A stretch of DNA of 28,226 nucleotides from Myxococcota bacterium (GTDB taxonomy: Bacteria; Myxococcota; XYA12-FULL-58-9; JABJBS01), in assembly GCA_036339465.1 (NCBI GenBank), contig JAYZAY010000055.1, positions 1 through 28,226 on the forward strand. The letters are read 5' to 3'. The first letter of the stretch is position 1. Each line of letters starts with the position of its first letter. Both the position numbers and the translations under genes were made by a program. Of the stretch, positions 11,814-28,226 are shown piece after piece. Below the pieces are notes generated by a model. The model had not been told where the DNA came from and did not search any database. It saw nothing but the letters and a program-made list of their open reading frames with translations.

Positions 11814-13223
11814 TTAGGCAGCGATAGCGTCTCTTACTTCGACTTCCCGAAATAGCCGATTAAGGTCCTGTTTAAGAACTTTAAAGAGAGCCTTCTTTTG
11901 GGAGTCATCTGCAAAATCAATATCGCAGAATTTTCGAATACATGCAGTACCCACATCCCGAGCCTTATCGGATTCAATGATGCCCTCTTTCAGGGCAATT
12001 CGAGCTGCTTCGGCGTAGTTTTCGAAAACCCAAACCCCCTTCTTTGCCAATCGACGTTTTCTCATATCCGACATCCCCGTGACATTGTGGATAAAGACCC
12101 CCAACATCTGATCAGGGTGTTTTTCGAGCATCTCTAAGCCAACTTCCGTATCTTTTTGACCACTATCACCCACAAAGGTAAACTTTCCTTCGGGGTAGAG
12201 GCGGAGGTTGTTCTCAAAATTACTAAATTTCTTCGTTCCAATTCGCGATTCAGGAAACAAATGACAGAAGTCTCCGTAAAGTATCGTCGCAGAGGCGAGT
12301 CCCGATTTCTCCAGAGAATTACGAGTGTAATGGTCCATCAATCCAAAACCATCTTTCGGTCGCGCCGTCAGAAATGCAACCCCCAGGCTCTTGCCTAGGT
12401 CTTCCATGTCCGTTCGCCGTAAGGCCTGAATAAACTGCCCACTGCCCGGATAGATCGTCGATTTGGGATAACGGGTATCTTTCCAACCACAACACACCGT
12501 ATCATCAATATCTGCAAACACCCGTTGTTCGAGTACGTCGGTTTTCGGTTTGATTGATTCGATTTTTGCAATCGCCGTTTCTGTATTTGAGGTCCCGACG
12601 ACATGGCCCAGAATAACATTCAAACTCTTACCGATAAATCGTTTATCTAAGCACGCTTTAAACTCCCGCACATTGTCTGCATCAAGAGTTAAAATCAGTT
12701 CCAGAGCGAGTTTGGGTTTCCTGCAATAACTCTTGTCATACATGGTCTTGAAAACTCGAGATTTGACCTCAGGGGTCAATTCGCTTGCTCGGGCCTTAAG
12801 CACGGTCAAGCGCTCTGTCACAGTGCTCACCCAACAGGAATTTCCACTTTCCCGGAGAAGATTCACCATGTGAGCACGCTTCAACACCGTATTCAGGCTT
12901 GTCGAATCCAGAGTCGCTAGAATCTCGGTAATGGCAGCATCGTTGTTTGACCTATTATTTGTAGCAATAAGCCTCAAGAGAATTTTCTCTTCGTTGGAAA
13001 GGGTATTTTTCGGCTGGTCGAATCCTAGCGGCGGTAAGACGATCCCCTGAATTGCATCTGGATCTCCCAACTTATTCAAACCAAGATCCGTGGGTAGAAT
13101 TGTCAGGGGCTCGGTTTGTTTGGGCTCTATATTCAGCACTTTCTCTGCCTTCTTCGTGGAGGCAAGAATAGGTGCCGGCAAAATGAGTGGACTAAGGCCA
13201 ATTGCTCCAGAGGTTTTCACCAT
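11814..13223 (-). CDS. App1/DUF2183-like HAD-superfamily (phosphatidate phosphatase-like) protein with an unassigned N-terminal helical domain, 469 aa
   Basis: VFADIDDTV (DxDxT, 12498-12512), FLTARP, a conserved Lys region (GTKKFSNF) and FVGDSGQKD (GDSGQKD at 12150-12170); CAGGAG RBS before the ATG. Confidence 0.75.
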   Translation of the reverse strand: MVKTSGAIGLSPLILPAPILASTKKAEKVLNIEPKQTEPLTILPTDLGLNKLGDPDAIQGIVLPPLGFDQPKNTLSNEEKILLRLIATNNRSNNDAAITEILATLDSTSLNTVLKRAHMVNLLRESGNSCWVSTVTERLTVLKARASELTPEVKSRVFKTMYDKSYCRKPKLALELILTLDADNVREFKACLDKRFIGKSLNVILGHVVGTSNTETAIAKIESIKPKTDVLEQRVFADIDDTVCCGWKDTRYPKSTIYPGSGQFIQALRRTDMEDLGKSLGVAFLTARPKDGFGLMDHYTRNSLEKSGLASATILYGDFCHLFPESRIGTKKFSNFENNLRLYPEGKFTFVGDSGQKDTEVGLEMLEKHPDQMLGVFIHNVTGMSDMRKRRLAKKGVWVFENYAEAARIALKEGIIESDKARDVGTACIRKFCDIDFADDSQKKALFKVLKQDLNRLFREVEVRDAIAA

Positions 13224-13254
13224 CAGCTCCTGAAAAAGGGGTATTCAAGGATGG

Positions 13255-13281
13255 ATATCGGCGCTGAAACGGAGGTGTTGC
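13255..13281 (-). promoter_or_regulatory. Putative alternative-sigma promoter GCAAC-N14-GCCGATAT (copy 1)
   Basis: Minus strand GCAAC acctccgtttcagc GCCGATAT, ending 31 nt before the ATG at 13223; the same motif and spacing precede the next two genes. Confidence 0.7.
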
Positions 13282-13536
13282 TTGTTTTTGGAAAAATGGA
13301 CCCAAATTGACAAAAAAGAAATTAAGGAGATAAAAAAAAGGCACCCAACTCATTCTCTAACCCGTCTAGGGAGTCAAACAACCCCAGCAGACACCTCGCG
13401 AATAAAATCCAGCTGTGTATCCAAAAAAATCGTGGGGTGGAGTACTCGATAATAATGCAATGCCCCTATCAGACAAGTATCAAATCTGGGCTAGCGAATC
13501 TAAGGTCCTAGAGTAATTCCATGCTTGTGGCTAAAT

Positions 13537-15441
13537 CTACGCCCTCTGCATTGCAGACAACTGCGGAAGCACTGGGGGGAAGATCTCGGGTGCCTCTTTC
13601 AACATCCCGATTCTTTCGAGTTTCCCCCTTTGTTCTGGAGAGAGAATTCCCCTTTTCGAAGCTTCTTTCTGCATGGAAATCCAGCTTCGAAGAGCCGCAT
13701 GTTGACCGTCGTTTCGCGAAACCTTCACATCACCATAATCTTGCTTATATACGCGCAATGAATGGTACATGAAATTCCACTGTTCGGGGCTCACGGATTG
13801 GTGAAGCTCGAAACTCTTCTTCAATATTCGGTTCTTCGCAAATGAAAGACCAATGCAAGAAATAATGGTAAAGATCATAGCGGGGATGAAAATCATATTG
13901 AGACCGGGAACAAACGTTGCCGCAGCCATGGCCGCGCTTCCAATCACGAGACCCGCTGTCTTTGCCACACTCACCGCCTTCGCCGATATAGGCACTTTGG
14001 ATGTCGGACTCTTCAGGTCTTTGTAGGTTTCGTAGGCACTGGCTCCGATGGCCAAAGCCTGAAGTGCTGGAAAGACGTAGCTAAGGGCTGTGGCAATAGG
14101 CGCCAACCCCTTGGCGACAGTCCGTCCTAAAACTCCAAAGATCCTCCCCATCACCCCCACAGCCATCCCTCCCACCGACAAGGTTGTTAGAGCCATTTGA
14201 ACTTTGTTATTGGCTTGGAGTTTTTCCCATTTCTCAACCACATCCAGTTTTGACTTTTTCAACGCAGATTTTGGAATCTTTCCCAAAAGAAACTGGTCGA
14301 AACGTGTTTTTTCGTCATGGAGTTTGTCCCAAGTATGGCTGAGTTTCGCACTGATTTCTTCATCCTCCGGATGCTCCATCTTAAGGCACTGCAATTGAAC
14401 CAAATTGCGAGAATACATCTGGAGATTTTCTTTGTCGGGATATTGATTGAAAAGTTTGATAAATACCTTGTCTCTTTTCGGATCATCTTGCGACTGCGAA
14501 AGCCAATGCTGAAGGGCCAAATGGTCCGGAACAATGTCGCCCTTATGGGATTTCTGATGTAAATACATTCCCAAGGCCACCACAGGAACCAGGCCAGTCC
14601 ACACGGCAGCAGTAGCAATGGCCACGGTGTGGGCGGAAATGCCAGTCATGCGCCCCACACAGCGGGCAAAATTTGCAAAATCATGGCCGACGGAAGCTTC
14701 ATGGGCCAAGGTTGCGTTATCCATGAGAGCCGCGGTAATTGGGTAGCCTGAACTCATGAGATGCTGAGTCAATCCGCAGGCAAGTAAAGCATAACCTGCT
14801 GCAGGATGACTGTCTTTGAGTTTCATGCCACCGATAACCGCGAGCGAATTCAATGCGAGACCGGGCAAAGATCCCGAAAGAGAAATCCAAGCGCTCATAC
14901 CATCCGCTCCCATGGCTTCACCCAGGGCGTTTGGCTCTCCACCACGCACCCAAGCTTTGCCGAGGGCACCATCGTCACCCACATCATGGGCACCGAGTAA
15001 TCGACCGAGGGCTTTCATAGCTTCACTAAAGTTTTCAGCGTCGCCGATAGCCTCAGCATTGTCCCAACCGTCCACTTGAAAACGTGGTTCACGGCCAGGC
15101 GCATAATCGTGAAGGAGGTGCCCCCCTAGATAACCATGACCCACAACTTCGTGGAGTGACGTGTCCACACCCGTGGTCGTCATGAGCACAGCAGTGCCTA
15201 CGCCGGAAACAGCGCCGATGGTGGGTCGGATGAAACCGAATTTAGGGTTCAGGGGAACGCCACGTCGTGCATCTAAACGACTCGTATCAACAAGATCCCG
15301 ACGAAACCCAGGATCTCGAGCCAAGTCACACTCAGAACCCCAAGATTCATTTGATTCAATGGCGCTAGGTCTAGGTGCAACCTTTGCACCCCTCTTGGCG
15401 TTCCTGATGAGATTGGAATTAATCGGTGAAATAGTCGTCAT
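13537..15441 (-). CDS. Orphan polytopic membrane protein, 634 aa: M50B-like zinc-protease motifs, hydrophobic hairpins and a C-terminal helicase-associated (HA)-like domain
   Basis: Likely start is ATG 15441 (MTTISPINSN) after AGAGG. LHEVVGH at 15136-15153, ISLSGSL, GHDF at 14677-14688; C-terminal WNFMYHSLRVYKQDYGDVKV...LRSWISMQK...GILSPEQRGKLERIGM at 13603-13779. Confidence 0.7.
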   Translation of the reverse strand: MTTISPINSNLIRNAKRGAKVAPRPSAIESNESWGSECDLARDPGFRRDLVDTSRLDARRGVPLNPKFGFIRPTIGAVSGVGTAVLMTTTGVDTSLHEVVGHGYLGGHLLHDYAPGREPRFQVDGWDNAEAIGDAENFSEAMKALGRLLGAHDVGDDGALGKAWVRGGEPNALGEAMGADGMSAWISLSGSLPGLALNSLAVIGGMKLKDSHPAAGYALLACGLTQHLMSSGYPITAALMDNATLAHEASVGHDFANFARCVGRMTGISAHTVAIATAAVWTGLVPVVALGMYLHQKSHKGDIVPDHLALQHWLSQSQDDPKRDKVFIKLFNQYPDKENLQMYSRNLVQLQCLKMEHPEDEEISAKLSHTWDKLHDEKTRFDQFLLGKIPKSALKKSKLDVVEKWEKLQANNKVQMALTTLSVGGMAVGVMGRIFGVLGRTVAKGLAPIATALSYVFPALQALAIGASAYETYKDLKSPTSKVPISAKAVSVAKTAGLVIGSAAMAAATFVPGLNMIFIPAMIFTIISCIGLSFAKNRILKKSFELHQSVSPEQWNFMYHSLRVYKQDYGDVKVSRNDGQHAALRSWISMQKEASKRGILSPEQRGKLERIGMLKEAPEIFPPVLPQLSAMQRA

Positions 15442-15470
15442 TGACTTGCCTCTTGTTGTTTCCTGATAGA

Positions 15471-15497
15471 TTTTCGGCAACAAACGGCATCGGTTGC
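15471..15497 (-). promoter_or_regulatory. Putative alternative-sigma promoter GCAAC-N14-GCCGAAAA (copy 2)
   Basis: Minus strand GCAAC cgatgccgtttgtt GCCGAAAA(TCT), ending 29 nt before ATG 15441. Confidence 0.7.
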
Positions 15498-15530
15498 CTA
15501 CGCCTTTCCTTAATGATGAAAGAAAATCGG

Positions 15531-15545
15531 TGACTCAATGAGTCA
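15531..15545. promoter_or_regulatory. Perfect 7-1-7 palindrome, possible operator
   Basis: TGACTCA-A-TGAGTCA, 33 nt upstream (minus-strand sense) of the GCAAC element of motif copy 2. Confidence 0.4.
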
Positions 15546-15596
15546 TTCTAGGGTGCCTGAATCGGCGAAGAAACAGAGAGCTTCTGAGATAAGCCT

Positions 15597-15926
15597 CTAC
15601 TTAACATTGACGAATTGAAGTTCACTTGAATGAACATAGTACTTCGCATCAAAATTAACGTTTTTTCCCTCAGAATTGATGCCTGTAGCTTCCACACCAA
15701 CATAGCCATAGTGGTTGTAGATGGCTCTTTCACTGGTGGGATGCCATTCAGTGGACAGAGTCGACAGCATCACCCGAATGTTCGTCAGTCCTGGCACCTT
15801 AGCCTTAAATAGAGTAACCGCGTCGTTCTTAATTTTGGTTTCAAGAGCCGGATCAGGATTGGTGCCCGTAGTACCGATGGTGCCGTCAAGAATTGGATTG
15901 CTGCGAATGCTTGCTGAAAAGTTCAT
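15597..15926 (-). CDS. Small orphan protein, 109 aa (predicted helix followed by beta strands)
   Basis: ATG at 15926 follows a very strong RBS (GGGAGGAGG) and motif copy 3; no signal peptide or TM segment. Confidence 0.75.
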   Translation of the reverse strand: MNFSASIRSNPILDGTIGTTGTNPDPALETKIKNDAVTLFKAKVPGLTNIRVMLSTLSTEWHPTSERAIYNHYGYVGVEATGINSEGKNVNFDAKYYVHSSELQFVNVK

Positions 15927-15964
15927 GGTATCCTCCTCCCGAGAAGTCGAATGAGCAACGAAGA

Positions 15965-15991
15965 TTTTCGGCCTCATGCAATTTTTGTTGC
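15965..15991 (-). promoter_or_regulatory. Putative alternative-sigma promoter GCAAC-N14-GCCGAAAA (copy 3)
   Basis: Minus strand GCAAC aaaaattgcatgag GCCGAAAA(TCT), ending 38 nt before ATG 15926. Confidence 0.7.
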
Positions 15992-16519
15992 GTCAAAAAA
16001 CTTGAAAACGTTCTTATTCGAAAATCCTGTGGTTTTTATTTTTGAACAATGCGCCACTGCCTCAAGGCCTGGTATCCCCACAACATCCCAAAAGCCAAAC
16101 CATTGAGGTTTCGTATCCAAGACTTTTTTCTCAAGGCAGGTTGGGTGAGAATTCCGAGATTTGTTTTCAATGTTCAAACCGCTACGTTCTGGTCTGCGGA
16201 TTCGACTGTATCAAAGTAGCCCCTGGTGAATCATCACTCAACAACGAGCGTCGTAAATGGGAACCAGTCGAAGCTATTAACCTGTGCTCTTTTAGACAAT
16301 GGCATCTGAGACTGACGAAACAAACGGTAACACCCAGCTTCCCACCACCATCCTCCAAAATGAACTTTTTGGGAGCATTCGAAAAGCCAATGACCACGCC
16401 CATATCTCTTACCCCGACAGTGAATATTGAACCCTGAAGTCGGCTATGTTAGTGGGCTTTTAGTTTCATTGAACCTGAGGCTAATCCGTTCCTCACCTTA
16501 TCATAGCTTGGAGATCTCT

Positions 16520-17221
16520 ATGAATATCCCCCGGAATATCCCCCGCCTTCGAATCTTTTCAATCATTTTGCTACTCGCAATGGGCTGTCAGCCGTCAGGC
16601 GCAAAAAAAGAAGAACCTGCGACCCCTACAGTCGTCAAAGCTCAAAAAGAGATGGTCAAAGAAGCGCCAAAGCCCACCGCGGTTAATTGCACCTATACCG
16701 TCAAAGCAGCAACACCAAAATGGACCGCCTACAAATATACCGAGAAGGCTCCGGTAAGCGGCACGTTCAACGAAAGCAAGCTGGGAGAAGCCAAAAGCGC
16801 AACCTCTTTAAGTGAAGCACTCATAGGTTTAACCATGGCCATTAACCCTGCATCGGTCGAAAGTAATAATCCCGCCCGGAATACCACCATCGCCACGTCG
16901 TTTTTCAATAAATTCATGCCCGCTACAGAAATCAGTGCCAAAGTGGATGCTGTAAAAGGAAATGATTCGACTGGTCGAATAACCATTAGTGTCAATATGA
17001 ATAGCGTCAGCAAAGCCCTAGAATTCGATTATACCATGAATGACAAGGGTGTACTTGAAGCCAAAAAGAGCGTTGATATGATCGACTTCAATTTAAAAGC
17101 TGCCTACGACGGCATTCACGAGGCATGCAAAGGACTCCACACCGGTAAGGATGGAGTTGCTAAAACTTGGACTGACGTGGAATTGGCGGTAACTGCTCAG
17201 ATCGAAAAGAAATGCAACTAA
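16520..17221 (+). CDS. YceI-like lipid/polyisoprenoid-binding lipoprotein, 233 aa (start corrected)
   Basis: GGAG RBS then ATG 16520; lipoprotein signal ending LAMG-C; Pro/Lys/Ala linker; WTAYKYTEKAPVSGTF, SVESNNPARNTTI (YceI 'S..T....RD'-like motif), LHTGKDGVAKTW. Confidence 0.75.
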   Translation: MNIPRNIPRLRIFSIILLLAMGCQPSGAKKEEPATPTVVKAQKEMVKEAPKPTAVNCTYTVKAATPKWTAYKYTEKAPVSGTFNESKLGEAKSATSLSEALIGLTMAINPASVESNNPARNTTIATSFFNKFMPATEISAKVDAVKGNDSTGRITISVNMNSVSKALEFDYTMNDKGVLEAKKSVDMIDFNLKAAYDGIHEACKGLHTGKDGVAKTWTDVELAVTAQIEKKCN

Positions 17222-17434
17222 ACTCTTTCTACTTCCAGACCATCATATCTCCCCTTGATTGGCTTCTTATGGGTTCGTCTCCCGCTTAAACATCTTCAGT
17301 AGACGATGCTCCTCAGTGGGATAGGCACAACCGGCTGGCGAAAAATCTTCCTTGAGTGGAGTTAAATATTCGGCATTTTCCCAATCCCGTAGACACCACT
17401 CGACCTTCGCGTCTAAACACCATAAAGAGCTTCC

Positions 17435-18121
17435 ATGATTTGGGCCTTTCTCACCTTGATATTAGTCGGTATTATCTTTGGCCCACAATGGTGGGCTCGA
17501 CAAATACTGAGCCAGCATGGGCATCGCCGAGCTGACATTCCCCAAAGCGGGTCTGAATTTGCCAACGCACTGATTCGGCATGTTGACCTAGCCCAAGTTG
17601 GGGTGGAGTTGGCCACACCAAACCAAGACCATTTTGACCCCATCGCCAATAGAGTCCGCTTAAGCCCCAATATTTATGAAGAGAACTCACTCACGGCAAT
17701 TGTGGTCGCAGCCCATGAAGTGGGGCATGCAATACAACATGCATCAAACTACTGGCCTCTTAAAATGCGAACAAATCTAGTCGGTTTCGCAACAAACCTC
17801 GAAAAAGCAAGTTCGGTAATTCTCATTGCGGCCCCCTTCGCCGGGCTACTCACTCGAAATCCCCGGCTCCCTATTTTTATGACAGTCTTCATGGTCGGGA
17901 GTATGCTTGCAAGCACCTTGATACACCTAATCACCCTTCCCGTAGAATTCGATGCCAGCTTCAAACGAGCCATGCCCTACCTTCGAGACGTGAAATACCT
18001 CACCGAAAGTGACATCCAAGCAGCAAAGAAAATCCTATGGGCATGCGCGCTCACCTATGTTGCTCGCTCCCTAGCAACCCTGCTTAATGTTTGGCGCTGG
18101 CTAAGAGTTTTACGGCGCTAA
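17435..18121 (+). CDS. Putative neutral zinc metallopeptidase (Zn_peptidase_2/YugP-like), membrane-anchored
   Basis: DHFDP, AAHEVGHAIQH (HExxH), TLPVEFDASFKRA, ALTYVA; N-terminal TM helix. Confidence 0.9.
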   Translation: MIWAFLTLILVGIIFGPQWWARQILSQHGHRRADIPQSGSEFANALIRHVDLAQVGVELATPNQDHFDPIANRVRLSPNIYEENSLTAIVVAAHEVGHAIQHASNYWPLKMRTNLVGFATNLEKASSVILIAAPFAGLLTRNPRLPIFMTVFMVGSMLASTLIHLITLPVEFDASFKRAMPYLRDVKYLTESDIQAAKKILWACALTYVARSLATLLNVWRWLRVLRR

Positions 18122-18586
18122 CCACCAAACAGTCCTTTTTTCCCTACAATACCAACCTAAGCACCAGTTCTTAAAATCAAAAGTTCACTTCTACACATAA
18201 TAGAGGCCATTATTTGTGCGCATTTGCGCCGGCAAAAACCGTGAATCGCGATACTCTCTATGTAATCCGCCAATCACCAGCATCGAGCTTTTGACTTTTA
18301 AGCACGCAAAACATGCCGAAGAACTCAACCTCGCAAATCACACCCCAAAAAAGGCTGTAGCTCCAAAGGAAAAATCGGCCCCACCTTCCTCCGCCGTGAA
18401 CTTAGACTCCCCATAACTTCTGCATCACCTCGCTATCAGCCCCAGCCCAAAACCCAATACTTCGCCCCAAATATCATGTTTCCTCCTCTGACAGTGCTAC
18501 CTACCGCCCATCATAAACCATAAAATTGGTGGATAAGGCGGCTACATTTACGGCCAATAGTTACATAACTGTCGTTTCCTTTGGCT

Positions 18587-18615
18587 AGTCCAATTTGACT
18601 TGGACTTTTCGTCCA
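18587..18615. promoter_or_regulatory. Candidate enhancer (bEBP-binding) site for the nirB sigma54 promoter
   Basis: AGTCCAA-N6-TTGGACT (18587-18606) overlapping TGGAC-N5-GTCCA (18601-18615), about 80-110 bp upstream of the -24 element. Confidence 0.4.
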
Positions 18616-18693
18616 CTGCAAAAACAACTATAAGCGCTTGTTTTTACACACTCTTCTTCGCCTAGCCATCGAAGTCACCATCCCCCATTTTTT

Positions 18694-18709
18694 TGGTATC
18701 TTTCTTGCT
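18694..18709 (+). promoter_or_regulatory. Sigma54 (RpoN) -24/-12 promoter of nirB
   Basis: TGGTATCTTTCTTGCT: GG-N10-GC with TTGC; 32 nt upstream of the nirB ATG. Confidence 0.7.
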
Positions 18710-18741
18710 ACTTCAATAGATGAAATCAAGGGAGGTCGAAG

Positions 18742-21708
18742 ATGTCTAAGTGTGTACCTGGAAGCAATTCCCGCTTTCCGAGGGTGTTGGTTATCGGCAA
18801 TGGCATGGTCGGCCAGAAGTTCCTAGAGACCCTCTCAGAGCTGGGTGGAGGTGATTGTTTCGAAATCGTCGTATTTGGCGAGGAATCCAGACCTGCTTAC
18901 GACCGCGTTCATCTTTCGGAATATTTTTCAGACAAAAGCGCATCAGAACTCGAACTATCTTCCGTCGAGTGGGCGCAAGAAAGAAACATCGCTCTGCGGC
19001 TATCCACCAAAGTGACACAAATTCACCGCGAACAAAAAACGGTAACCCTAGAAGATGGCCAATCCCTTTCCTATGATTATCTTGTTTTGGCAACCGGATC
19101 ATCTCCATTTCTGCCCCCGATTCCAGGCATCGAAACTGAAGGGGTTTTCGTTTATCGAACCCTCGATGACCTAGATGCAATTCAGGCCTACGGAACAACA
19201 TCTAAATCTGCTATCGTCATGGGTGGGGGCCTCCTAGGTTTGGAAGCAGCCAACGCCATGAAAAACCTTAACCTCGATACCACGGTTATAGAATATGCCC
19301 CGAGTCTCATGCCTAGACAACTCGACCTTGACGGCGGTTTGATTCTCAAAAAAGTAATCGAAGAACTCAATATTCCTGTCCTCCTAAACAAGCAAACCAC
19401 CAAGATATCTCAGGATGCGAACGGTCTTTCATTGGATTTTAATGGCGATGCTTCCATCAGCACAGATATGCTAATTGTATCCGCAGGCATTCGCCCCCGG
19501 GACGAATTGGCCCATGGTGCAGGTCTCACTATCGGAGAACGTGGTGGCGTGGTTGTCGACGACACCATGCGCACCTCTGACCCCTCCATTTTTGCAATTG
19601 GTGAAGTAGCCTCCTTTCAAGGGCAAACCTATGGCCTGGTTGCCCCAGGATATAACATGGCACAAGTAGCCGCCTCCATTCTAATGGCACAACCCGCACG
19701 TTTCCCAACACCGGATTTATCCACAAAACTTAAGTTGCTAGGTGTGGATGTTGCCACTTTCGGACAACTATTCACCGATGAAGAGTCGTCACAAATCGTT
19801 AAGTATACCGATCCAGGAAGGGGTATCTATAAACGACTCAACTTGTCTCTGGACGGAAAACAGCTCATCGGCGGAATGCTGGTGGGGGAAGCATCTGCGT
19901 ATCAAAACCTCTTGCAAATAATGAAGAACTCCCTGCCCCTTCCAGAATTCCCAGAGACGCTCTTATTGCCTAGCGGTGCCTCTACAGAATCACAGGAGCT
20001 CGAGCTTCCCGACTCCGCTCAAGTTTGTTCCTGTGAAAATATCAGCAAGGGAGCAATTCGAACTTGCATGGGCAAGGGGCAAGTCACCACCCTCGTCCAG
20101 CTCAAAGCAGAAACCAAAGCGGGAACCGGCTGTGGTGGATGCGCGCCTCTCTTGACAAAAATATTTCGTGATGAACTCGCCGCCCAAGGAAAAACTCTTG
20201 TCAATCATGTCTGTGAACACTTTACCTATTCTCGAAAAGAACTCTTCTCATTAATAAAAATACGTGGGTACAGAACCTTCAAAGACACGGTCGAAGGCAT
20301 CGGCGTCGGCTATGGATGCGAAACATGTAAACCTACGGTTGCTTCGATACTGGCCAGTCTCTGGAATGAACCAGCATTCGAACATGACATCATTCAAGAT
20401 ACCAACGACCGATTTATGGCCAACATACAACGGGGAGGAACCTACTCTGTTGTGCCGAGAATACCCGGTGGAGAAATTACACCAGATAAACTAATCGTAC
20501 TCGGTGAAGTTGCAAAAAAATACAATCTCTACTCGAAAATAACCGGTGGTCAGCGAATCGACCTATTTGGTGCCCATGTTCATCAATTACCCGATATTTG
20601 GGAAGAACTTATCGCAGCCGGTTTCGAAAGTGGCCATGCCTACGCAAAATCCCTCCGCACGATTAAAAGTTGCGTGGGGACAAGTTGGTGTCGCTTTGGT
20701 GTCGGAGACTCGACTCGATTGGCCATCAAACTCGAAAATCGATACCGTGGACTCCGCGCCCCGCATAAACTTAAATCTGCTGTTTCTGGATGCACCCGAG
20801 AATGTGCAGAAGCCCAAAGCAAAGATTTTGGAATCATCGCCACTGAACACGGATGGAACCTTTACGTGGGGGGAAATGGCGGAACCACACCAAGACACGC
20901 TCAATTGCTAGCGACAGACCTTGATGAAAAAACCTTGGTCAGCTTTATCGACCGCTTTCTAATGTACTATATTCACACTGCCGATAAGCTCCAACGCACA
21001 GCCCGATGGATCGAAGAACTAGACGGTGGAATCGACCGATTGCGGGAAATAATCGTCGGCGACATCATGGGCATCGGTGAGCAACTTGAATCTGAAATGG
21101 AAGCACTGGTTGGTCGATACCAATGTGAATGGAAAGCCTTAGTCAACGATAGCCAGCGACGCACCCATTTCTCTCATTTTTCCAATTCGTCGAAAGTGGA
21201 CCCAAATCTGGAATTCGTACAAATCAGACGACAAAAGCAACCCATAGCCTGGACCAAATCGATCGTCACCCAATCAGCTGCCAGGAACAAGAAGGAAGCC
21301 AGTCCATCCCAGGGAGCCTGGTTCAAAGCAGGGTCCATAAACGAATTGAATACAAAGGGTGGATCGTGTGTAAAAGTGGGAAATATGCAAATTGCCCTCT
21401 ATCATCTCCCGGAAAAACAGACCTGGTTTGCGACCCAGAATATGTGCCCCCATCGACGAGATATGGTTTTATCCCGAGGGCTCACAGGATACGCCGGAGA
21501 TACCCCGAAAGTTGCCTGTCCCCAGCATAAGAAAACCTTTTCCCTACTCACCGGCAAAGGTCTCAATGACCCCTCCCTGAATATCGAAACATATCCGGTT
21601 GAGATTAGAGATCAGGACATTTACGTTTTTCTTTCGAATAAAGTCGTCAAATCTTTTGATGACAGTAAAAACCGACACACCGTGGCCAGAGCTTGCGAAG
21701 TCGTCTGA
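18742..21708 (+). CDS. nirB: NAD(P)H-dependent siroheme nitrite reductase large subunit fused to a C-terminal Rieske (NirD) domain, 988 aa
   Basis: GNGMVG (FAD), GGGLLGLE (NAD), BFD-like CSCEN...GTGCGGC and CEH...GCETC, siroheme/4Fe-4S KSCVGTSWC and SGCTRECA; C-terminal NMCPH...LSRG...KVACPQHK; GGAGG RBS. Confidence 0.95.
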   Translation: MSKCVPGSNSRFPRVLVIGNGMVGQKFLETLSELGGGDCFEIVVFGEESRPAYDRVHLSEYFSDKSASELELSSVEWAQERNIALRLSTKVTQIHREQKTVTLEDGQSLSYDYLVLATGSSPFLPPIPGIETEGVFVYRTLDDLDAIQAYGTTSKSAIVMGGGLLGLEAANAMKNLNLDTTVIEYAPSLMPRQLDLDGGLILKKVIEELNIPVLLNKQTTKISQDANGLSLDFNGDASISTDMLIVSAGIRPRDELAHGAGLTIGERGGVVVDDTMRTSDPSIFAIGEVASFQGQTYGLVAPGYNMAQVAASILMAQPARFPTPDLSTKLKLLGVDVATFGQLFTDEESSQIVKYTDPGRGIYKRLNLSLDGKQLIGGMLVGEASAYQNLLQIMKNSLPLPEFPETLLLPSGASTESQELELPDSAQVCSCENISKGAIRTCMGKGQVTTLVQLKAETKAGTGCGGCAPLLTKIFRDELAAQGKTLVNHVCEHFTYSRKELFSLIKIRGYRTFKDTVEGIGVGYGCETCKPTVASILASLWNEPAFEHDIIQDTNDRFMANIQRGGTYSVVPRIPGGEITPDKLIVLGEVAKKYNLYSKITGGQRIDLFGAHVHQLPDIWEELIAAGFESGHAYAKSLRTIKSCVGTSWCRFGVGDSTRLAIKLENRYRGLRAPHKLKSAVSGCTRECAEAQSKDFGIIATEHGWNLYVGGNGGTTPRHAQLLATDLDEKTLVSFIDRFLMYYIHTADKLQRTARWIEELDGGIDRLREIIVGDIMGIGEQLESEMEALVGRYQCEWKALVNDSQRRTHFSHFSNSSKVDPNLEFVQIRRQKQPIAWTKSIVTQSAARNKKEASPSQGAWFKAGSINELNTKGGSCVKVGNMQIALYHLPEKQTWFATQNMCPHRRDMVLSRGLTGYAGDTPKVACPQHKKTFSLLTGKGLNDPSLNIETYPVEIRDQDIYVFLSNKVVKSFDDSKNRHTVARACEVV

Positions 21709-21812
21709 GCTTCAAAAAGAACCAATAGGAAGTTTCTTCATCTAGTTCCACATATTTGAAGAAAGAACATTATTGTTCGCAGAAAAACACCAGCAAAAAC
21801 GCCCGACGCTAT

Positions 21813-21828
21813 TGGCATAATAATTGCT
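21813..21828 (+). promoter_or_regulatory. Sigma54 (RpoN) -24/-12 promoter upstream of the nitrate transporter
   Basis: TGGCATAATAATTGCT, near-consensus TGGCA-N6-TTGC; 37 nt before ATG 21866. Confidence 0.8.
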
Positions 21829-21865
21829 CCTTATCGTGATTGATAAACGAATAAGGAGAATGCAA

Positions 21866-23194
21866 ATGTCTGTGGGACAGGCTTCCAGAATCAGCCTATT
21901 GACTTTTGGAACACCGAAAATTCGAGCCTTCCACATATCCTGGCTCTCTTTTTTCGTGTGCTTCTTTGCCTGGTTTGGTGTTGCACCACTGATGGCGATT
22001 ATCCGGGATGAGTTTGCACTAACAAAATCCCATATTGGTAATATAATCATCGCTTCGGTTACAGGGACAACAATCGCTCGCCTTTTCATGAATTGGCTCT
22101 CTGACAAAATCGGTCCGAGAACAGCCTACACCACGTTTCTCTGTCTCGGTTCATTGCCAGTTATGGCTATTGGACTCTCCACTGATTATGAATCGTTTCT
22201 CCTTTTTCGTCTTTTCATTGGGTTCATCGGCGCTTCATTCGTCATTACGCAGTACCACACGTCCTCGATGTTCGCTCCAAACGTGGCGGAAACCGTAAAT
22301 CCAATCGCCGCTGGCTGGGGAAACTGCGGTGGTGGAGCCACTCAATTCATTATGCCCCTAATATTTTCCGCATTCATGGGACTTGGTTTTGGCGGAGCCA
22401 TGAGTTGGCGCTTAGCAATGGTCGCCGCAGGGTTTGCATGCCTGATTGTGGGACTACTCTACTATTTTTTCACCCGAGACTTACCCCAAGGAAACACTGC
22501 GCAATCAAGAAAACTCGCCCTCCAAGAGACCCCCGAGGCCGGTAAAGACAGCTTCTTAGCCACTTTGAAGGACGGTAGAGTCTGGCTCTTGTTTTTTATC
22601 TACGGAGCCTGTTTTGGTGTAGAACTCACCATCTACAATATCGCGACCATGTATTTTATGGACAACTTTGGTCTATCCCTCACCTTGGCTGGTTTGGCCG
22701 CAAGTTTATTCGGTTTGATAAACTTCTTTGCTCGTTCTCTCGGCGGTGCAATTGGAGACCGTTTTGACAAAAAAGGAGGCATTCATGCACGGGTTCTTTG
22801 GCTTTTCATTGCGGTCTTTTGTGAGGGTTTAGCCCTTATGATCTTCTCTCAGATGACGGTTCTTTCCATCGCCGTCCCTTCACTCGTCGTCTTTAGTTTC
22901 TTTGTTCAGATGAGTGAGGGGGCAACGCACTCAGTCGTACCATTTATAAAGGAGAAATCCCTCGGGTCGGTCGCCGGGTTTATTGGCGCTGGCGGAAGCT
23001 TTGGTGCCGTTTGTGCTGGTTTTCTTTTCAAGAGTGAAGCCTTGACTTGGCCACAAGCCCTTCTCATCCTAGGGGCGGTCGTAACAGCCATTTCATTTCT
23101 CACCTTTGGATTTCGATTCTCCGCCCACAAGGAATGCTCAATCCGTAAAAAACAGCGAGAACTTTCCCTGCCTGCTGGTCCGGTACCTGCGTAA
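21866..23194 (+). CDS. narK: NarK/NRT2-family MFS nitrate/nitrite transporter, 442 aa (start corrected)
   Basis: AAGGAG RBS 7 nt before ATG 21866; RAFHISWLSFFVCFFAWF, ARL..., GASFVITQYHTSSMF, AGWGNCGGG, YGACFGVEL, FARSLGG, GAGG. Confidence 0.9.
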   Translation: MSVGQASRISLLTFGTPKIRAFHISWLSFFVCFFAWFGVAPLMAIIRDEFALTKSHIGNIIIASVTGTTIARLFMNWLSDKIGPRTAYTTFLCLGSLPVMAIGLSTDYESFLLFRLFIGFIGASFVITQYHTSSMFAPNVAETVNPIAAGWGNCGGGATQFIMPLIFSAFMGLGFGGAMSWRLAMVAAGFACLIVGLLYYFFTRDLPQGNTAQSRKLALQETPEAGKDSFLATLKDGRVWLLFFIYGACFGVELTIYNIATMYFMDNFGLSLTLAGLAASLFGLINFFARSLGGAIGDRFDKKGGIHARVLWLFIAVFCEGLALMIFSQMTVLSIAVPSLVVFSFFVQMSEGATHSVVPFIKEKSLGSVAGFIGAGGSFGAVCAGFLFKSEALTWPQALLILGAVVTAISFLTFGFRFSAHKECSIRKKQRELSLPAGPVPA

Positions 23195-23220
23195 CGCGTA
23201 TACTAGAGGGAGATGGGATT

Positions 23221-24996
23221 TTGACGAGTATCGGTGATCAGATGAGCGACTATTCCAAATCAGATAATAGTGAACTCACAAAAACTTGGGACTCCAAAAA
23301 GAAGAGTTGGTCTAGTCGTCTGCCTATCATCGATTCGTATCTGAAAGAACAACAGGACTTAACCGCAGTTGAACGGTTCGCTCAATTACACGAACACGAA
23401 AGCACCGTTCTCCAGGGAAAATACTATCAAGATTTGCTGCCAACCAATCTACCGGGAGAATCGGAACAATACGCGTTCGAAGTCGATTTAGACAATTGCA
23501 CTGGCTGTAAGGCATGTGTCACCGGATGCACGAGCCTCAATGGACTAAAAGATGGAGAAACCTGGCGCGATGTCGGTTTGGTCATTGGTGGAACAGGTAG
23601 CCAAGCCACCACTCAGCATGTAACCACCGCATGCCATCACTGCCTCGAGCCTGCATGTGCAAAAGGCTGCCCAGTTAACGCCTATGTGAAGGATGAAGAA
23701 ACTGGAATAGTCAAACACCTCGATGACCAATGTATCGGATGTCAATATTGTACCCTAACCTGCCCCTATGACGTTCCCAAATTTTCAAAATCCATGGGGA
23801 TTGTTCGCAAGTGCGACATGTGTATTGACCGATTAAAAGAAGGCGAAGCCCCTGCATGTGTTCAGGCCTGCCCCACCGGGGCCATTAACATTTCAGTGGT
23901 AAACAAAAGGGACGTTCTCCGAAAAGGCGAGACTGGGATGCTTATTCCAGGCACGCCTCCTTCAAACATCACCTACCCAACAACCACCTATAAGAGCAAA
24001 AGTGCTTCCATTAGACACACCCTACCCGCCGATTATTATCGTCCCCAGCAACAACATTCCCATTGGCCTCTAATCTTTCTTCTGGTTTTATCCCAAATGT
24101 CTATTGGCGTCTTCGCCATCCAAAGAAACTTTTTGCTTGAAAGCCTTGCATTCGGGTTTCATTCATTGGTTTCTCTCAGTTCTCTTCTAGGCCTAGCGAT
24201 TATGGGACTCGCACTAACCACCAGCCTCTTCCATTTAGGCCGGCCACAATATGCTTTTCGAGCCATCCTGGGAATAGGGCACTCATGGCTTAGCCGCGAA
24301 ATCCTTACCTTCGGAATCTATTTCAAAGTGGCACTTATATTTACCGCTGCCTGTCTTGTTGAGTCTGTTCCGGAGCTTAGAAATAAACTTCCCACCTGGT
24401 ATCCCGATGGACTTTACCTGCTACCCATTCTATCCAGTATGACCCTCATAGCAGGGGGAACCGCCCTTTTGTCGTCTGTGATGGTTTATCATGACACCAA
24501 ACGCATTTTCTGGAATTGGCTCCGCGGCGGATTTAAATTCGTCTCAACGACACTCCTTTTAGGGATCACCTCGCTCCTATTATTAAGTTCAGCTTACCTC
24601 TGGAACTCGGAGACCCCTCCCACTTTCATCCGTGACTTCCTGAACAATTCATTGATTCCATATTCAGCCTTACTTATGGGCGCCAAGTTGTCCCATGAGA
24701 TTTCGCTCTTCCACTATTTACGTGACTCCCACAATTCCGCCATGAAACGTACAGCTCAACTCCATTTCACCGAGCTACTTAACTCCACCGTGGCCCGAGT
24801 GGCATGTGGTCTTTTAGGCGGAATTCTCATCCCGCTTCTACTCATGCACGACCTCAGAAGTTCCCCGGCCCCCACAGGCCCGATGGTTCTCATTATGGGC
24901 TTTGGGTCCATTTTAGTCTTTTGCGGAGAAGTTCTCGAACGATACCATTTCTTTTCCGCTGTCGTTGTATGGAAGATGCCAGGAGACTTCAGATGA
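23221..24996 (+). CDS. Fusion of a DmsB/NrfC-like 4x[4Fe-4S] protein and a DmsC/YnfH-like membrane anchor, 591 aa
   Basis: [42 protein letters not shown]...PACVQACP; then about 8 TM helices with [37 protein letters not shown]. Start is either TTG 23221 (GGGAG RBS) or ATG 23242. Confidence 0.88.
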
Positions 24997-27221
24997 AATC
25001 CCCCTCAGCCAAAGGGCTCATTCGGTGGGCTTCCAATTTAATACATCAAGTTGACGGCCCTTTAACTCAGCAGCTCCTTCGCACCCCCGGAGAATTCGGT
25101 TTAGGACAAGTTCCCGCGGCCCAAAAACCTACCGCAACCACCTCCTTAACCTGTGGCTACTGCTCCACTGGATGCAGTTTGACGGCCCATCTAAAGGATG
25201 GAGAAGCCATCAATCTATCTCCGAACTCCGAATACCCGGTCAATCTCGGAATGGCCTGCCCCAAAGGATGGGAAGCGTTAACACCTATGGGCGCCTTAGA
25301 CCGCGGAACCACACCTCTGCTGCGCTCGAAAGCAGGTCGAATGGAAGCCATCGATTGGCACGATGCGATGACGACCTTTACGGATAAATTTAAAGAGATT
25401 GGTCGAAAACATGGTCAGGACTCCATCGCATTTTTGGGAACCGGCCAGATTACGACCGAAGAGATGGCTCTTTTAGGCTCTCTGGCTAAATTTGGCATGG
25501 GCATGGTTCACGGAGATGGCAATACAAGACAGTGTATGGCCACTGCAGTTGCGGCCTATAAACAAAGTTTCGGATTTGATGCACCGCCCTATACCTACCA
25601 AGATTTCGAAGAATCCGATGTCATTATTTTGATCGGAAGCAACCTGTGCATTGCTCACCCAATTATGTGGGAGCGAATTTCTAGAAACAAAAACAATCCC
25701 AAGGTCATCGTCATCGACCCGCGAAAAACAGAAACCGCGTCAGCTGCAACCCATCATCTCGCAATTTATCCAAAATCAGACCTCGTACTTTTTTATGGAT
25801 TGGCAAATATACTCATCAATGAAAATTGGACAGATAACACCTTCATCGAGAAACACACCGATAACTTCGAAGAATTTCGGAAATTCGTGTCGCAATTCAG
25901 CATCGCTTCAGTATCCGAAGCCACTGGCATTGAGGAACCACAATTATTTGACCTTGCAAAAACCATTCATGCGTCAAAGGCCACCTCCTTTTGGTGGACC
26001 ATGGGAGTCAACCAAAGTCATGAGGGCGTACGAGTCGCTCAGTCAGTCATCAATATTGCCCTCATGACCGGAAATATTGGAAGACCAGGAACCGGAGCGA
26101 ATTCCATTACAGGACAGGCAAATGCGATGGGTTCTCGGCTCTTCAGTAATACCAGCTCACTACTCGGCGGGCATGATTTCAAAAACGCGGAGCACCGAAA
26201 AAAAGTTGCTCAACATTTAGACATCCCCGAGACCAGTATTCCGACCACGGCGGGAATGGCCTATGACCAAATTGTGGAGGGTATCCTTTCTGGGAAAATT
26301 AAGGGGCTCTGGGTGATCGCAACGAACCCAGCCCACTCATGGATCCACCAAGGAAACCTACGCGACATTCTAGGCCGATTAGACTTCTTAGTCGTCCAAG
26401 ACTTATACCCGACCACCGAAACTTCCCAATATGCAGACCTTTATTTTCCATCTGCGGGTTGGGGGGAAAAAGAAGGTACATTCATTAACTCCGAACGTCG
26501 CATTGGACTACTCAAAAAAGTCATTCGCGCTCCGGGTAAAGCGCTCTCCGATTTTTATATTTTCAAACTGGTTGCTGAGTATTGGGGATGTGGCGACCTT
26601 TTCACGCAGTGGAGCGACCCTGAGTCCACCTTTCAAATCCTCCGAAAAATAACCAAAGACCAACCCTGCGACATCACCGGCATAGAGGATTATGCTCAAA
26701 TAGACACTCTTGGTGGAATCCAGTGGCCTCATCCAGAAGGTTCGAAAACACCAAATCCGCAACGGAGGCTATTCGAAGACAACTGTTTTTTCCACGCCAA
26801 TAAGCGAGCTTATTTTCATTTCGAAACACCCCGTGACATACCAGAAAAGACCAACGAGGAATTCCCATTTCTCCTATTGACGGGACGAGGGTCCTCTTCA
26901 CAATGGCATACACAAACACGCACCTCAAAATCCCCTGTATTGCGAAATCTCTATCCCAATGCAGTGTATGCCGAAATAAATCCACTGGATGCCGAGAGGC
27001 TTGGCATCCAACGCCATTCGGAGGTACGCATACTTTCGCGCCGGGGAAGTGTTAGGGCCAAAGCCTTTCTGACCACCAGTATTCAGGAGGGACACATATT
27101 TATGCCCATGCATTACGAGGAAACCAATGTCCTAACACATGCCTCTTTCGACCCCTATTCACGACAACCCTCCTACAAAGCATCGGCAGTGAACATTCGA
27201 CCACTGCAACATTGGGAATAG
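24993..27221 (+). CDS. nasA: Mo-bis-PGD nitrate reductase catalytic subunit, assimilatory NasA/NarB type, 742 aa (start corrected)
   Basis: ATG 24993 overlaps the upstream stop (ATGA) with an [16 protein letters not shown]...[12 protein letters not shown] (Mo-ligating Cys), [49 protein letters not shown]; no Tat signal. Confidence 0.88.
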
Positions 27222-27294
27222 AGAGAATATTCTAGAAAAAGATGGCATGACCACGCCACAATGACGTAGTTAAAATAATAAAAGAGAGAAAGAC

Positions 27295-28113
27295 ATGACG
27301 CAAAAAAAAAATGGGTTTGTTTGGTTCGTTGGAGCTGGTCCCGGTGCAGCAGACCTAATCACCGTACGTGGCCTCACGATACTGAAACGCGCTGATGTTG
27401 TTTTATACGACAGTTTGGTTGAACCAGAGCTTCTGGAACTTACCGATTCCAGAAAACTCCATGTGGGCAAACGTTGTGGACGACATAATTATTCTCAAGA
27501 AGAAATTTCGTCGCTCATGGTTAGGGAGGCGTGGAATGGTCACCGGGTGGTCCGATTGAAAGGCGGAGATCCTGCAGTCTTTGGCCGACTGGGCGAAGAA
27601 GTGGATGCGCTTCGAAAATATGGGATTCCATTCGAAATTATTCCTGGGGTTTCAAGTGTCACCGCCAGTGTGCTTGCATGTGGCCTATCTCTCACCAAAC
27701 GAGGAATAGCAGACTCTTTTTGTGTGGTCACAGGTAAGAAAGCCGACTCAGATGAACCACTGACGATTCCAACTTATGACCCTAGGCAGACCATCGTAAT
27801 TTTGATGGGCGTTAGAAATTTTGCATCCATCAGAAAGTCCATGTCAGAACAAGGTTACCCCATGGATATCCCCTTATGCTTTATTTCGCGCGCGGGCAGA
27901 AAGGATGCGTCCTATATTCACACAAATTTGGGTTCAGCCAACAAAAAGGTCGACGCGCTCAAAGACGCAGCACCCACGATAATCTTAGTCGGCCATATCG
28001 CGCAGGATCTAGAGACTGAAATTGATTATTTTTCCCCCGAGTCCATGGGGAATTCTCCACGTCTTTGGACTGAGCCAGACAAAACAGGAATTAAAGTGTC
28101 TTCCCCGACCTGA
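27295..28113 (+). CDS. cobA: Uroporphyrinogen-III C-methyltransferase (siroheme pathway; stand-alone CysG-A/CobA type)
   Basis: VGAGPG, VLYDSLV, VGKRCG, RLKGGDPAVFGR, IPGVSS; no N-terminal CysG-B dehydrogenase/chelatase domain. Confidence 0.93.
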   Translation: MTQKKNGFVWFVGAGPGAADLITVRGLTILKRADVVLYDSLVEPELLELTDSRKLHVGKRCGRHNYSQEEISSLMVREAWNGHRVVRLKGGDPAVFGRLGEEVDALRKYGIPFEIIPGVSSVTASVLACGLSLTKRGIADSFCVVTGKKADSDEPLTIPTYDPRQTIVILMGVRNFASIRKSMSEQGYPMDIPLCFISRAGRKDASYIHTNLGSANKKVDALKDAAPTIILVGHIAQDLETEIDYFSPESMGNSPRLWTEPDKTGIKVSSPT

Positions 28114-28226
28114 CTCAGGATTCCGACACCTGCGCTTGGTGATAGTGACTTATGATTGTAGACACCGAGGGGCGATTCCAGAACCATATTATTTTGACAT
28201 CCACCCACGATAATGTTGCCCTAAGC

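Follow-up and report, generated by a model that had tools for sequence, protein, structure and literature searches.

The window analysed here is a 28,226-nucleotide (nt) stretch of a Myxococcota bacterium assembly (GCA_036339465.1, contig JAYZAY010000055.1, positions 1 to 28,226 of the forward strand), and it carries a plus-strand operon whose genes follow one another with short spacers in the order nirB(Rieske)-narK-fusion-nasA-cobA (Table 1). Our subject is the central pair, in which the gene for a protein combining an iron-sulfur (Fe-S) half with a DmsC-like membrane half (P0001, hereafter the fusion) precedes a gene for a molybdoenzyme of the NapA/Nas type (P0002, hereafter NasA). An earlier note, made from the sequence of this DNA, had noted that the fusion gene overlaps the start of nasA and proposed that the pair encodes a cytoplasm-facing, quinol-fed nitrate reductase. 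The overlap was confirmed, with correct coordinates, in an ATGA shared by the stop codon of the fusion gene and the start codon of nasA (cagATGAaat). The program-made open reading frame (ORF) for NasA spans 24804..27221, and its in-frame ATG at 24993 yields the 742-residue protein considered throughout.

Pfam searches divided the fusion into two halves, with Fer4_11 matching residues 133-225 at 88.9 bits and DmsC matching residues 280-578 at 57 bits (cut-off 22.3). The Fe-S half is 35% identical to Escherichia coli DmsB (E 4e-36), and the profile of its Fe-S domain matches FdnH (1kqf_B, 1.3e-25), PcrB, ArrB and PsrB; the DmsB model TIGR02951 gave 131 bits, below its cut-off of 214, and narH only 47 bits on this domain. 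Sixteen cysteines fall into four cluster groups (C93/96/99/103, C138/141/146/150, C171/174/177/181 and C198/201/213/217), and all of them were invariant both in the alignment of 20 fusion sequences used for motifs and charge counts (20/20) and in the 66 genome-derived sequences used to assess invariance (66/66). The membrane half is 32% identical to E. coli DmsC over 110 residues (BLASTP, E 2e-9), and AlphaFold2 (AF2) placed eight helices in it (residues 282-311, 314-338, 356-382, 397-424, 433-462, 468-501, 520-547 and 553-582) with a predicted local distance difference test (pLDDT) score of about 80-95. The model of this domain superimposed on ActC (8k9e_C; VIA-align Z 24.3, 300 residues, 3.3 Å) and on PsrC (2vpw_C; VIA-align Z 19.0, 241/250 residues, 3.5 Å), the latter also with a Foldseek probability of 1.0. 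More than 8000 homologues of the fusion were present in metagenome-derived protein sets.

In the text of PMC8076601 available to us, the quinone site of DmsC is formed by Ser62, His65, Ser82 and Glu87, and replacement of His65 blocks quinol oxidation. Upon aligning the two proteins we found that S62, H65, S82, S85 and E87 of DmsC correspond to S335, H338, S355, S358 and E360 of the fusion, the last four of which were invariant in 66/66 sequences. Because the residues of the DmsC site are aligned and conserved, the membrane half of the fusion looks like it carries a working quinol site and does not resemble a bare tether.

The orientation of the fusion was assessed from export signals and loop charge. 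We found no signal peptide, no twin arginine (RR) in the first 80 residues and no hydrophobic segment before residue 283. With helix boundaries taken from the hydropathy of the alignment, which agree with the AF2 helices, lysine plus arginine (K+R) residues averaged 17.0 on the loops of the Fe-S side versus 1.9 on the other side, a bias seen in 20/20 sequences and in the window's own fusion (15 versus 4). The eight helices of E. coli DmsC gave a weak opposite bias (2 versus 4). K+R counts based on transmembrane (TM) peaks picked automatically from single sequences were discarded, since this procedure overlooked helix 6 of the fusion and gave E. coli DmsC a spurious ninth peak. Based on the missing export signal, the K+R bias and the 280-residue N-terminal cofactor domain, the Fe-S domain should be cytoplasmic, and the loop between helices 2 and 3 with the predicted quinol site, as well as the C-terminus, should lie on the same side. 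By these sequence signals the membrane anchor would be upside down relative to DmsC and PsrC. The topology check that the earlier note had suggested, comprising the absence of a signal peptide or twin-arginine translocation (Tat) motif, the eight TM helices and the charge bias, came out in favour of its cytoplasm-facing enzyme, and together with the conserved DmsC quinol-site residues it supports a quinol-fed one, with quinol as the presumed donor.

NasA matched only the Pfam domains Molybdop_Fe4S4 (40.1 bits), Molybdopterin (203.3 bits) and Molydop_binding (104.9 bits), and the Pfam search returned no Fer2_BFD domain, which Paracoccus and Ralstonia NasC/NasA have. No RR pair was found in residues 1-50, the maximum 15-residue hydropathy within residues 1-70 was 0.69, and nothing in NasA corresponds to the Tat-motif region of E. 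coli NapA (SRRSFMK); these Pfam, RR and hydropathy checks agree with the claim that the enzyme lacks both a Tat signal and a BFD domain. Among NCBIfam models, Fdh-alpha gave 483 bits, NasA_Halo NF041323 443.1 (cut-off 1000), NasC NF047855 436.6 (cut-off 1100), NapA 349 (cut-off 904) and dmsA_ynfE 133, so that no Nas, Nap or Fdh-alpha cut-off was reached, the NasA_Halo and NasC equivalog models being narrow. The best solved-structure matches were formate dehydrogenases and NapA. Active-site positions distinguish nitrate reductases from formate dehydrogenases, with the Cys-Met pair and a Thr in place of an Arg serving as class markers. Upon alignment, R179-Q-C181-M182 of NasA resembled RHCM of E. 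coli NapA, where FdhF has RV-Sec-His, and T373 stood at the place of FdhF Arg333, where NapA also has Thr. Because the Cys-Met site and T373 follow NapA and not FdhF, we assign NasA by sequence to the nitrate-reductase type, and the active site settles the choice against a formate dehydrogenase. Nitrate reductase is also the annotation of the closest named homologues. For one of them, from Singulisphaera sp. GP187, the RefSeq name is 'nitrate reductase'; the submitter label on the same protein, 'nitrate reductase (quinol-dependent), catalytic subunit', was judged automatic and given no weight.

We placed the enzymes that are paired with a fusion in a quick maximum-likelihood tree of 33 rows, whose references comprise only Nas, Nap and formate dehydrogenase types. 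The paired enzymes formed one clade with a Shimodaira-Hasegawa approximate likelihood ratio test (SH-aLRT) support of 100 and a stem length of 1.45, apart from the Paracoccus, Sinorhizobium and Ralstonia NasC/NasA, the mycobacterial NasN-type enzyme, NapA and FdhF. The phylogeny proposed in the earlier note thus sets these enzymes in a clade of their own. They also share an N-terminal extension, in which G22, L24, T25, L28, P32, G33, F35, G36, L37 and G38 were invariant in the alignment of 21 NasA homologues.

The two proteins were folded together, with NasA at its full 742 residues (alignment of 21) and the fusion represented by residues 30-275 (alignment of 20). The interaction prediction score from aligned errors (ipSAE) reached 0.93, 0.92 and 0.92, and the best of three controls gave 0.00; this complex prediction, also among the checks suggested at the outset, favours the pairing at 0.92 versus 0.00. 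The partner had a pLDDT of 85, and contact agreement between runs was at least 95%. Expected errors were lowest for contacts between NasA residues 87-94, a stretch holding the FS0 ligand C89, and two stretches of the fusion, 96-105 and 216-218, which hold C96, C99, C103 and C217; more broadly, NasA 85-94 was predicted to touch fusion 94-108 and 216-220 with expected errors of 0.6-0.9 Å. We take this placement of the FS0 loop against a cluster of the fusion to be the FS0-FS1 arrangement of solved molybdoenzyme/Fe-S pairs. Both family-specific extensions (NasA 18-52 and fusion 33-68) lie at the predicted interface, the extension of the fusion meeting NasA at residues 122, 506-530 and 567-572.

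A scan for the fusion matched at least 600 stretches, of which 589 were confirmed. Relatives of the fusion were found in at least 589 species-level genomes, and we surveyed the best 80 of these at least 589 confirmed loci, with one genome per species, an alignment of 20 fusion homologues as the query and the fused form of the Fe-S/DmsC protein as the form covered. In 79 of the 80 loci the gene immediately after the fusion, in the same orientation, encodes a NasA homologue with 57-67% identity, and in the single locus without one the contig edge falls inside the fusion gene. The start of nasA and the stop of the fusion overlap by 4 or 1 nt in 48 of these 79 loci; in the others the gap is 0-30 nt (11 loci), 31-100 nt (10 loci) or 101-400 nt (10 loci), so that overlaps and gaps of up to 30 nt account for 59/79 loci. 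The pairing of fusion and NasA is therefore far beyond chance (79/80 related loci). The 80 loci derive from Planctomycetota, Myxococcota, Poribacteria, Acidobacteriota, Verrucomicrobiota and metagenome-assembled genomes labelled Elusimicrobia and Proteobacteria, placing the pair in at least five named phyla plus the candidate Poribacteria and bearing out the earlier expectation that similar gene pairs occur in other phyla. A NirBD match was present in 60/80 loci, seven of the 20 loci without it being under 6 kb, a NarK-type match (at least 290 bits) in 31/80 and CobA in 0/80. In six loci the nitrite reductase is instead a NirA-like enzyme (L027:5155-7995, L028:5014-7884, L079:5080-7926, L054, L056 and L075). 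This NirA-like protein of about 950 residues carries sirohaem and a fused rubredoxin-like motif, Rieske domain and FNR-like FAD/NAD domain (Pfam on L028), and the Rieske motif was present in four of the six.

Related loci also hold Amt, NarX-like sensor pairs and ABC transporter genes, with Amt in the Poribacteria loci. Adjoining the pair were a LuxR-type response regulator in 12 loci, a histidine kinase with a PilJ/NarX-like sensor domain in nine and an Alginate_exp-type outer-membrane porin in seven, and these regulators, kinases and porins are possible parts of nitrate sensing and uptake. Loci with such neighbours include L014, L021, L043, L047, L052, L068, L073 and L079.

As a test of co-occurrence less circular than the 80-locus count, we sampled 301 genomes from the window's own phylum. 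A full-length fusion was present in four, and a NasA homologue with at least 57% identity was found, adjacent, in the same four; the next-best molybdoenzyme in the sample was 36% identical. The rarity and patchiness of the pair within the phylum suggest that it moves as a unit. G+C content along the window falls from about 0.54-0.55 (positions 1-11000) to about 0.46-0.48 (12000-28226), with the shift at about 11600-12000 and the nitrate cluster in the lower-GC part. The lower G+C together with the rarity of the pair (4/301 genomes) hints at horizontal acquisition.

Comparison with known nitrate reductases places NasA nearest in kind to the classical Nas enzymes (Paracoccus NasC, Ralstonia and Klebsiella NasA, cyanobacterial NarB), which are likewise cytoplasmic molybdenum-bis(pyranopterin guanine dinucleotide) (Mo-bisPGD) enzymes that lack a Tat signal, bind an N-terminal [4Fe-4S] cluster and have a Cys ligand, and whose genes likewise accompany those for a nitrite reductase and a nitrate transporter. 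NasA of the window, however, is only 31-35% identical to them and falls in a separate clade, it has a conserved N-terminal extension and lacks the BFD domain present in Paracoccus and Ralstonia, and its obligate neighbour is a membrane Fe-S/DmsC protein as opposed to a soluble flavoprotein or ferredoxin. Ralstonia- and Klebsiella-type NasA draw on a diaphorase, Paracoccus NasC works with NasG/NasB, and cyanobacterial NarB uses ferredoxin. NarGHI is likewise a quinol:nitrate oxidoreductase with a cytoplasmic active site, but its anchor NarI is a dihaem cytochrome b that oxidises quinol at the outer face and thereby builds a proton gradient, and NarG and NarH belong to other clades; mycobacterial NarGHI has been reported to serve assimilation too. 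Nap differs in the Tat signal of NapA and in its NapD/NapB/NapGH partners, whereas NasA carries no signal. At the level of subunit architecture, the pair is thus distinct from Nar, Nap and classical Nas, as had been claimed.

Among quinone-linked systems, DmsABC and PsrABC share the 16 cysteines, the PsrC-like fold and the presumed direction from quinol to acceptor, but they are Tat-exported, face the periplasm and keep the B and C subunits separate. The present pair, by contrast, carries no signal, has the opposite charge bias and joins B and C in one chain. The termini and quinone site of PsrC lie on the P-side, the reverse of what is predicted for the fusion, and the catalytic subunit does not belong to the DmsA, PsrA or NarG lineages, its best families being Fdh-alpha, Nas and Nap. 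SoeABC of Allochromatium vinosum and Aquifex aeolicus combines the same parts, namely a molybdoenzyme, a four-cluster protein and an eight-helix NrfD-family anchor, a likeness judged from published description. SoeABC consists of three polypeptides, oxidises sulfite and reduces quinone, whereas in the present system one fusion stands for B and C, the catalytic subunit is of the NapA/Nas type and electrons would run in the opposite direction. In the accessible part of PMC8076601, a cytoplasm-facing SoeABC with an inverted anchor is put forward as a hypothesis, and SoeC has the quinone residues His65, Glu87 and Ser82.

In the plasmid collection, the nearest NasA relative without a fusion partner is encoded on plasmid p1 of Cetobacterium somerae (L097:5983-10700) and is 46% identical. 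Its operon holds the Mo enzyme, a 135-residue soluble Fer4_11 protein, a Pyr_redox_2 flavoprotein and a TDT-family transporter, beside ribose-utilisation genes. The Fe4S4 domain of this enzyme begins at residue 1 and it matches NasA of the window only from residue 53; in the quick tree it fell inside the paired clade on a long branch, its exact position being unsafe. The Cetobacterium operon seems to keep the catalytic core and the Fe-S wire while an NAD(P)H module takes the place of the quinol module, giving a soluble form of the system in a gut fusobacterium. By analogy, this swap fits the DmsC domain as the point of electron entry and Fer4_11 as the wire, because the relative has a Pyr_redox_2 flavoprotein in the place of DmsC.

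The host assembly comprises 4.17 Mb and is an estimated 92.8% complete. Within it we found no NarG (TIGR01580) and no NarJ/TorD-type chaperone; nasA was the sole PF00384 gene found, the fusion was the sole DmsC-family gene found, and one other NrfD-family gene lay on another contig. No nap genes were found in the window. Because MenA scored above its cut-off (176 versus 102 bits) and a proteobacterial UbiA fell below its own, menaquinone is the likely quinone of the host on these gene matches; a search of the genome for MqnA gave no match. Menaquinone has a potential of about -74 mV and the nitrate/nitrite couple one of about +420 mV, which makes menaquinol a competent donor.

Collectively, we consider it probable that NasA and the fusion constitute a cytoplasm-facing, membrane-bound menaquinol:nitrate oxidoreductase that serves assimilation. 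Quinol as the donor, the direction of electron flow and the assimilatory role are what we infer from the gene anatomy, motifs, orientation signals and conservation described above, together with the predicted fold and interface. In the mechanism that we propose, NarK would import nitrate, and NasA, with its Mo-bisPGD, Cys181 and FS0, would dock on the cytoplasmic four-cluster domain of the fusion. The inverted anchor would open the quinol pocket (H338, E360, S355) to the cytoplasmic side, next to the Fe-S chain, where menaquinol would be oxidised and its protons released to the cytoplasm. Electrons would then pass from FS4 to FS1, on to FS0 and to the Mo centre, reducing nitrate to nitrite, which NirB, with sirohaem supplied via CobA, would take to ammonium using NAD(P)H. 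The quinol:nitrate step itself would be electroneutral and separate no charge, its possible advantage being that reducing power could enter through proton-pumping quinone reductases before it reaches nitrate.

Several observations weigh against this proposal. Of 157 solved complexes, 116 attained the mark used for calibrating the complex score, as did 2 of 215 mismatched pairs; these counts are only rough since custom alignments were used in the complex prediction, and the score may reflect likeness to FdnGH, PsrAB, ArrAB and FdhF-HycB and is no proof of binding. AF2 modelled the Fe-S half of the fusion poorly (mean pLDDT 66.9, with 3 of 28 ten-residue blocks in residues 1-280 reaching 60), and its Foldseek TM-score of about 0.1 is poor because the model is of low confidence there. 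Within the predicted quinol site, 56 of the 66 sequences have Ser at position 335, whereas 9 have Ala and 1 has Gly (non-Ser in 10/66). The 80 loci were picked by likeness to the fusion and many are mutually related, such that their counts are not independent. Directly upstream of the fusion, 3/80 loci encode an FNR-like FAD/NAD protein, through which electrons from NAD(P)H may reach the Fe-S chain in those three loci. This 266-residue protein (FAD_binding_6 plus NAD_binding_1) was seen in Gimesia-type loci (L018:7185-7985, L023:7167-7970 and L026:1-1047). Lastly, an NADH route of the Paracoccus kind appears compatible with the gene content, given the NasG-like Rieske domain on NirB.

This last route is the main rival of a quinol donor, and in it NADH electrons would pass through the NirB flavin and Rieske centre to NasA, as in Paracoccus NasBGC, leaving the fusion as a tether or a secondary entry. 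The earlier note had stated that there is no separate diaphorase or ferredoxin gene, and none is present in the cluster; however, NirB carries its own FAD/NADH domains along with a NasG-like Rieske domain. The Rieske ligand set of NirB is complete (CPH...CPQH), as in the NirD/NasG-type protein of Paracoccus marcusii and unlike that of Ralstonia NirD, and the Rieske motif is kept in 41 of the 43 full-length NirBD genes that adjoin the pair. The P. marcusii protein is a plasmid-encoded 'NirD' beside nirB and a nitrate-reductase gene, and we take it to be the counterpart of P. denitrificans NasG. In the portion of PMC6618116 available, P. denitrificans NasG is considered the relay that carries electrons from NADH to NasC, with NasC and NasB both receiving electrons from NADH, possibly in a complex with the ferredoxin NasG. 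Set against these points, the NADH-type enzymes that we inspected (Paracoccus, Ralstonia) have a C-terminal BFD [2Fe-2S] domain that NasA lacks, and the predicted complex sets the first cluster of the fusion at FS0. We know of no electron entry to such enzymes other than FS0. A tether would not need 16 invariant cysteines and an invariant quinol site, and the pair also stands beside a NirA-like reductase in six loci, with no NirBD match in 20/80. On balance we regard the NADH route as fairly improbable.

Keeping the menaquinol-fed machine but changing its purpose, the same complex might work in dissimilation or redox balancing, as a quinol:nitrate electron sink when oxygen is low, and NirB would then serve to detoxify nitrite. 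Quinol-linked nitrate reductases (Nar, and Nap with NapGH/NapC) are classically respiratory or redox-balancing, we found neither Nar nor another molybdoenzyme in the host, 9-12 loci have NarX-like kinase and LuxR-type regulator pairs beside the fusion and nasA, and an 11-subunit complex I is encoded 7 kb upstream. The surroundings are nevertheless assimilatory, with a NirB-type sirohaem reductase, CobA and, in Poribacteria loci, Amt, and with a cytoplasm-side quinol site the reaction would separate no charge, making a dedicated sink improbable in our estimation. The sink and assimilatory roles are not mutually exclusive and are inseparable by sequence. That NasA acts on something other than nitrate (formate, chlorate, selenate or similar), its nitrate context being coincidental, could be read from the Fdh-alpha model giving the best NCBIfam score, the formate dehydrogenases among the best structure matches and the failure to reach any Nas or Nap equivalog cut-off. 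We consider this highly improbable: Cys-Met and Thr373 follow NapA rather than the Sec/Cys-His and Arg333 of formate dehydrogenases, the loci hold NirBD and NarK matches at the frequencies given above, and its closest named homologues carry nitrate-reductase annotations.

Textbook donors of assimilatory nitrate reductases are NAD(P)H, ferredoxin and flavodoxin, and supply from the quinone pool, the probable route here, is not listed for them. Searching the open full-text literature, which leaves aside subscription-only papers and supplements, we found no NasA-type enzyme described with DmsB/DmsC or NrfD as a quinol-dependent assimilatory system, and the phrase 'membrane-bound assimilatory nitrate reductase' gave no match there; PMC4013037 and a vesicomyid preprint had no bearing on the subject. 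An unfused narB-ttrB-nrfD three-gene operon is described for Thiovulum in the available section of PMC9938260, with nrfD read as polysulfide reductase. In the accessible part of PMC7331816, a recent phylogeny of the whole family, canonical four-cluster or anchor subunits are said never to accompany enzymes of the Nas/Nap/Aio/FDH clade, a generalisation that the fusion-NasA gene pair contradicts. The architecture recombines known parts, namely a Nas-type enzyme, DmsB/DmsC and a Soe-like orientation.

If the donor is quinol, the cost of growth on nitrate, the coupling of respiration to nitrogen assimilation and the reading of nasA as a marker would need revision for the groups that carry the pair, and the fusion would be the second upside-down NrfD-family anchor after that of SoeABC. 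The pair is not rare, and its carriers include abundant marine and soil lineages as well as the cultured Gimesia, Singulisphaera acidiphila, Sorangium cellulosum and Adhaeretor mobilis. More tentatively, and in our view somewhat unlikely as a whole, routing through the quinone pool would repay energy via a pumping quinone reductase, the NrfD-like domain might exploit the large drop in potential from menaquinol to nitrate to move ions, and the system would form a hidden nitrate sink in presumed aerobes without Nar or Nap. Were this so, it would concern many Planctomycetota, Verrucomicrobiota, Myxococcota and Poribacteria of sea and soil, and surveys that score nasA as 'assimilatory, NADH/ferredoxin type' would misjudge its energetics and role.

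Table 1. Coordinates of the nitrate operon and of the features predicted within it (positions of the window).
Feature	Position	Strand	Basis or remark
NirB with C-terminal Rieske domain (NirD/NasG-like), NAD(P)H nitrite reductase, 988 aa	18742..21708	+	NF011565 1070.9 bits (cut-off 883)
Fused NirD-like domain of NirB	21262-21708	+	full Rieske ligand set CPH...CPQH, ~25-residue tail
NarK-type major facilitator superfamily (MFS) nitrate/nitrite transporter	21824..23194	+	TIGR00886 280.7 bits (below cut-off 311.7); Pfam MFS_1 102 bits
Fe-S/DmsC fusion (P0001), 591 aa, TTG start, alternative ATG 23242	23221..24996	+	Pfam Fer4_11 + DmsC
Fusion N-terminal motif, residues 36-80, LTAVExFSQxH...QxxYYxxLxP	23326..23460	+	family-specific, conserved in alignment of 20
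Four-[4Fe-4S] domain of fusion, residues 83-228, 16 Cys	23467..23904	+	CxxCxxCxxxC-type groups
Eight-helix NrfD/DmsC-fold membrane domain, residues 283-591	24067..24993	+	eight hydropathy peaks; AF2
Predicted quinol site S335, H338, S355, S358, E360, TM2-TM3 loop (HLGRP...SWLSRE)	24223..24300	+	alignment to E. coli DmsC
ATGA stop/start overlap, fusion TGA/NasA ATG, translational coupling	24993..24996	+	sequence
NasA catalytic subunit (P0002), 742 aa, Mo-bisPGD NapA/Nas-type nitrate reductase	24993..27221	+	Pfam three-domain architecture
NasA N-terminal extension, residues 15-52, DGPLTxxLLxxPGxFGLGQVP	25035..25148	+	family-specific, no twin-arginine
FS0 [4Fe-4S] motif C54-x2-C57-x3-C61...C89	25152..25259	+	4 Cys invariant in alignments (21 homologues; NapA/FdhF comparison)
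Codon of Cys181, predicted Mo ligand	25533..25535	+	aligns with NapA ligand Cys and FdhF Sec140
Uroporphyrinogen-III C-methyltransferase CobA/SUMT, sirohaem supply for NirB	27295..28113	+	NF004790 253 bits (cut-off 198); TIGR01469 246 bits

Among the neighbouring genes, NirB also matched the NirD model TIGR02378 (96.9 bits) and the Pfam domains Pyr_redox_2, Fer2_BFD, NIR_SIR and Rieske_2. An Rfam scan of the window gave no match, and promoter and terminator scans were at chance (10 versus 12.0 expected and 16 versus 12.0 expected). A 368-nt contig from run X20, guessed to be RNA, covers only positions 26830-27165 in the 3' part of nasA at 100% identity, with short loose ends on both sides that resemble mutual reverse complements and are probably a library artefact; this contig says nothing firm on expression or co-transcription. 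Three ORFs of the window had no Pfam match at E 0.001, encoding 360 residues (2-1084, +), 131 residues (16042-16437, +; also without an NCBIfam match) and 126 residues (15597-15977, -). DNA nearly identical to the window is present in seawater metagenomes from at least three studies.

A complex I-type operon occupies positions 1501-11563 (+) and encodes homologues of NuoA, B, C, D, H, I, J, L, M and N by Pfam. It has a gap at 6356-6652, and no search aimed at NuoK was made. There were no NuoE/F/G genes in the window and no second PF00384 (NuoG-like) gene in the genome, which points to the 11-subunit form of complex I. The operon sits 7 kb upstream of the nitrate cluster.

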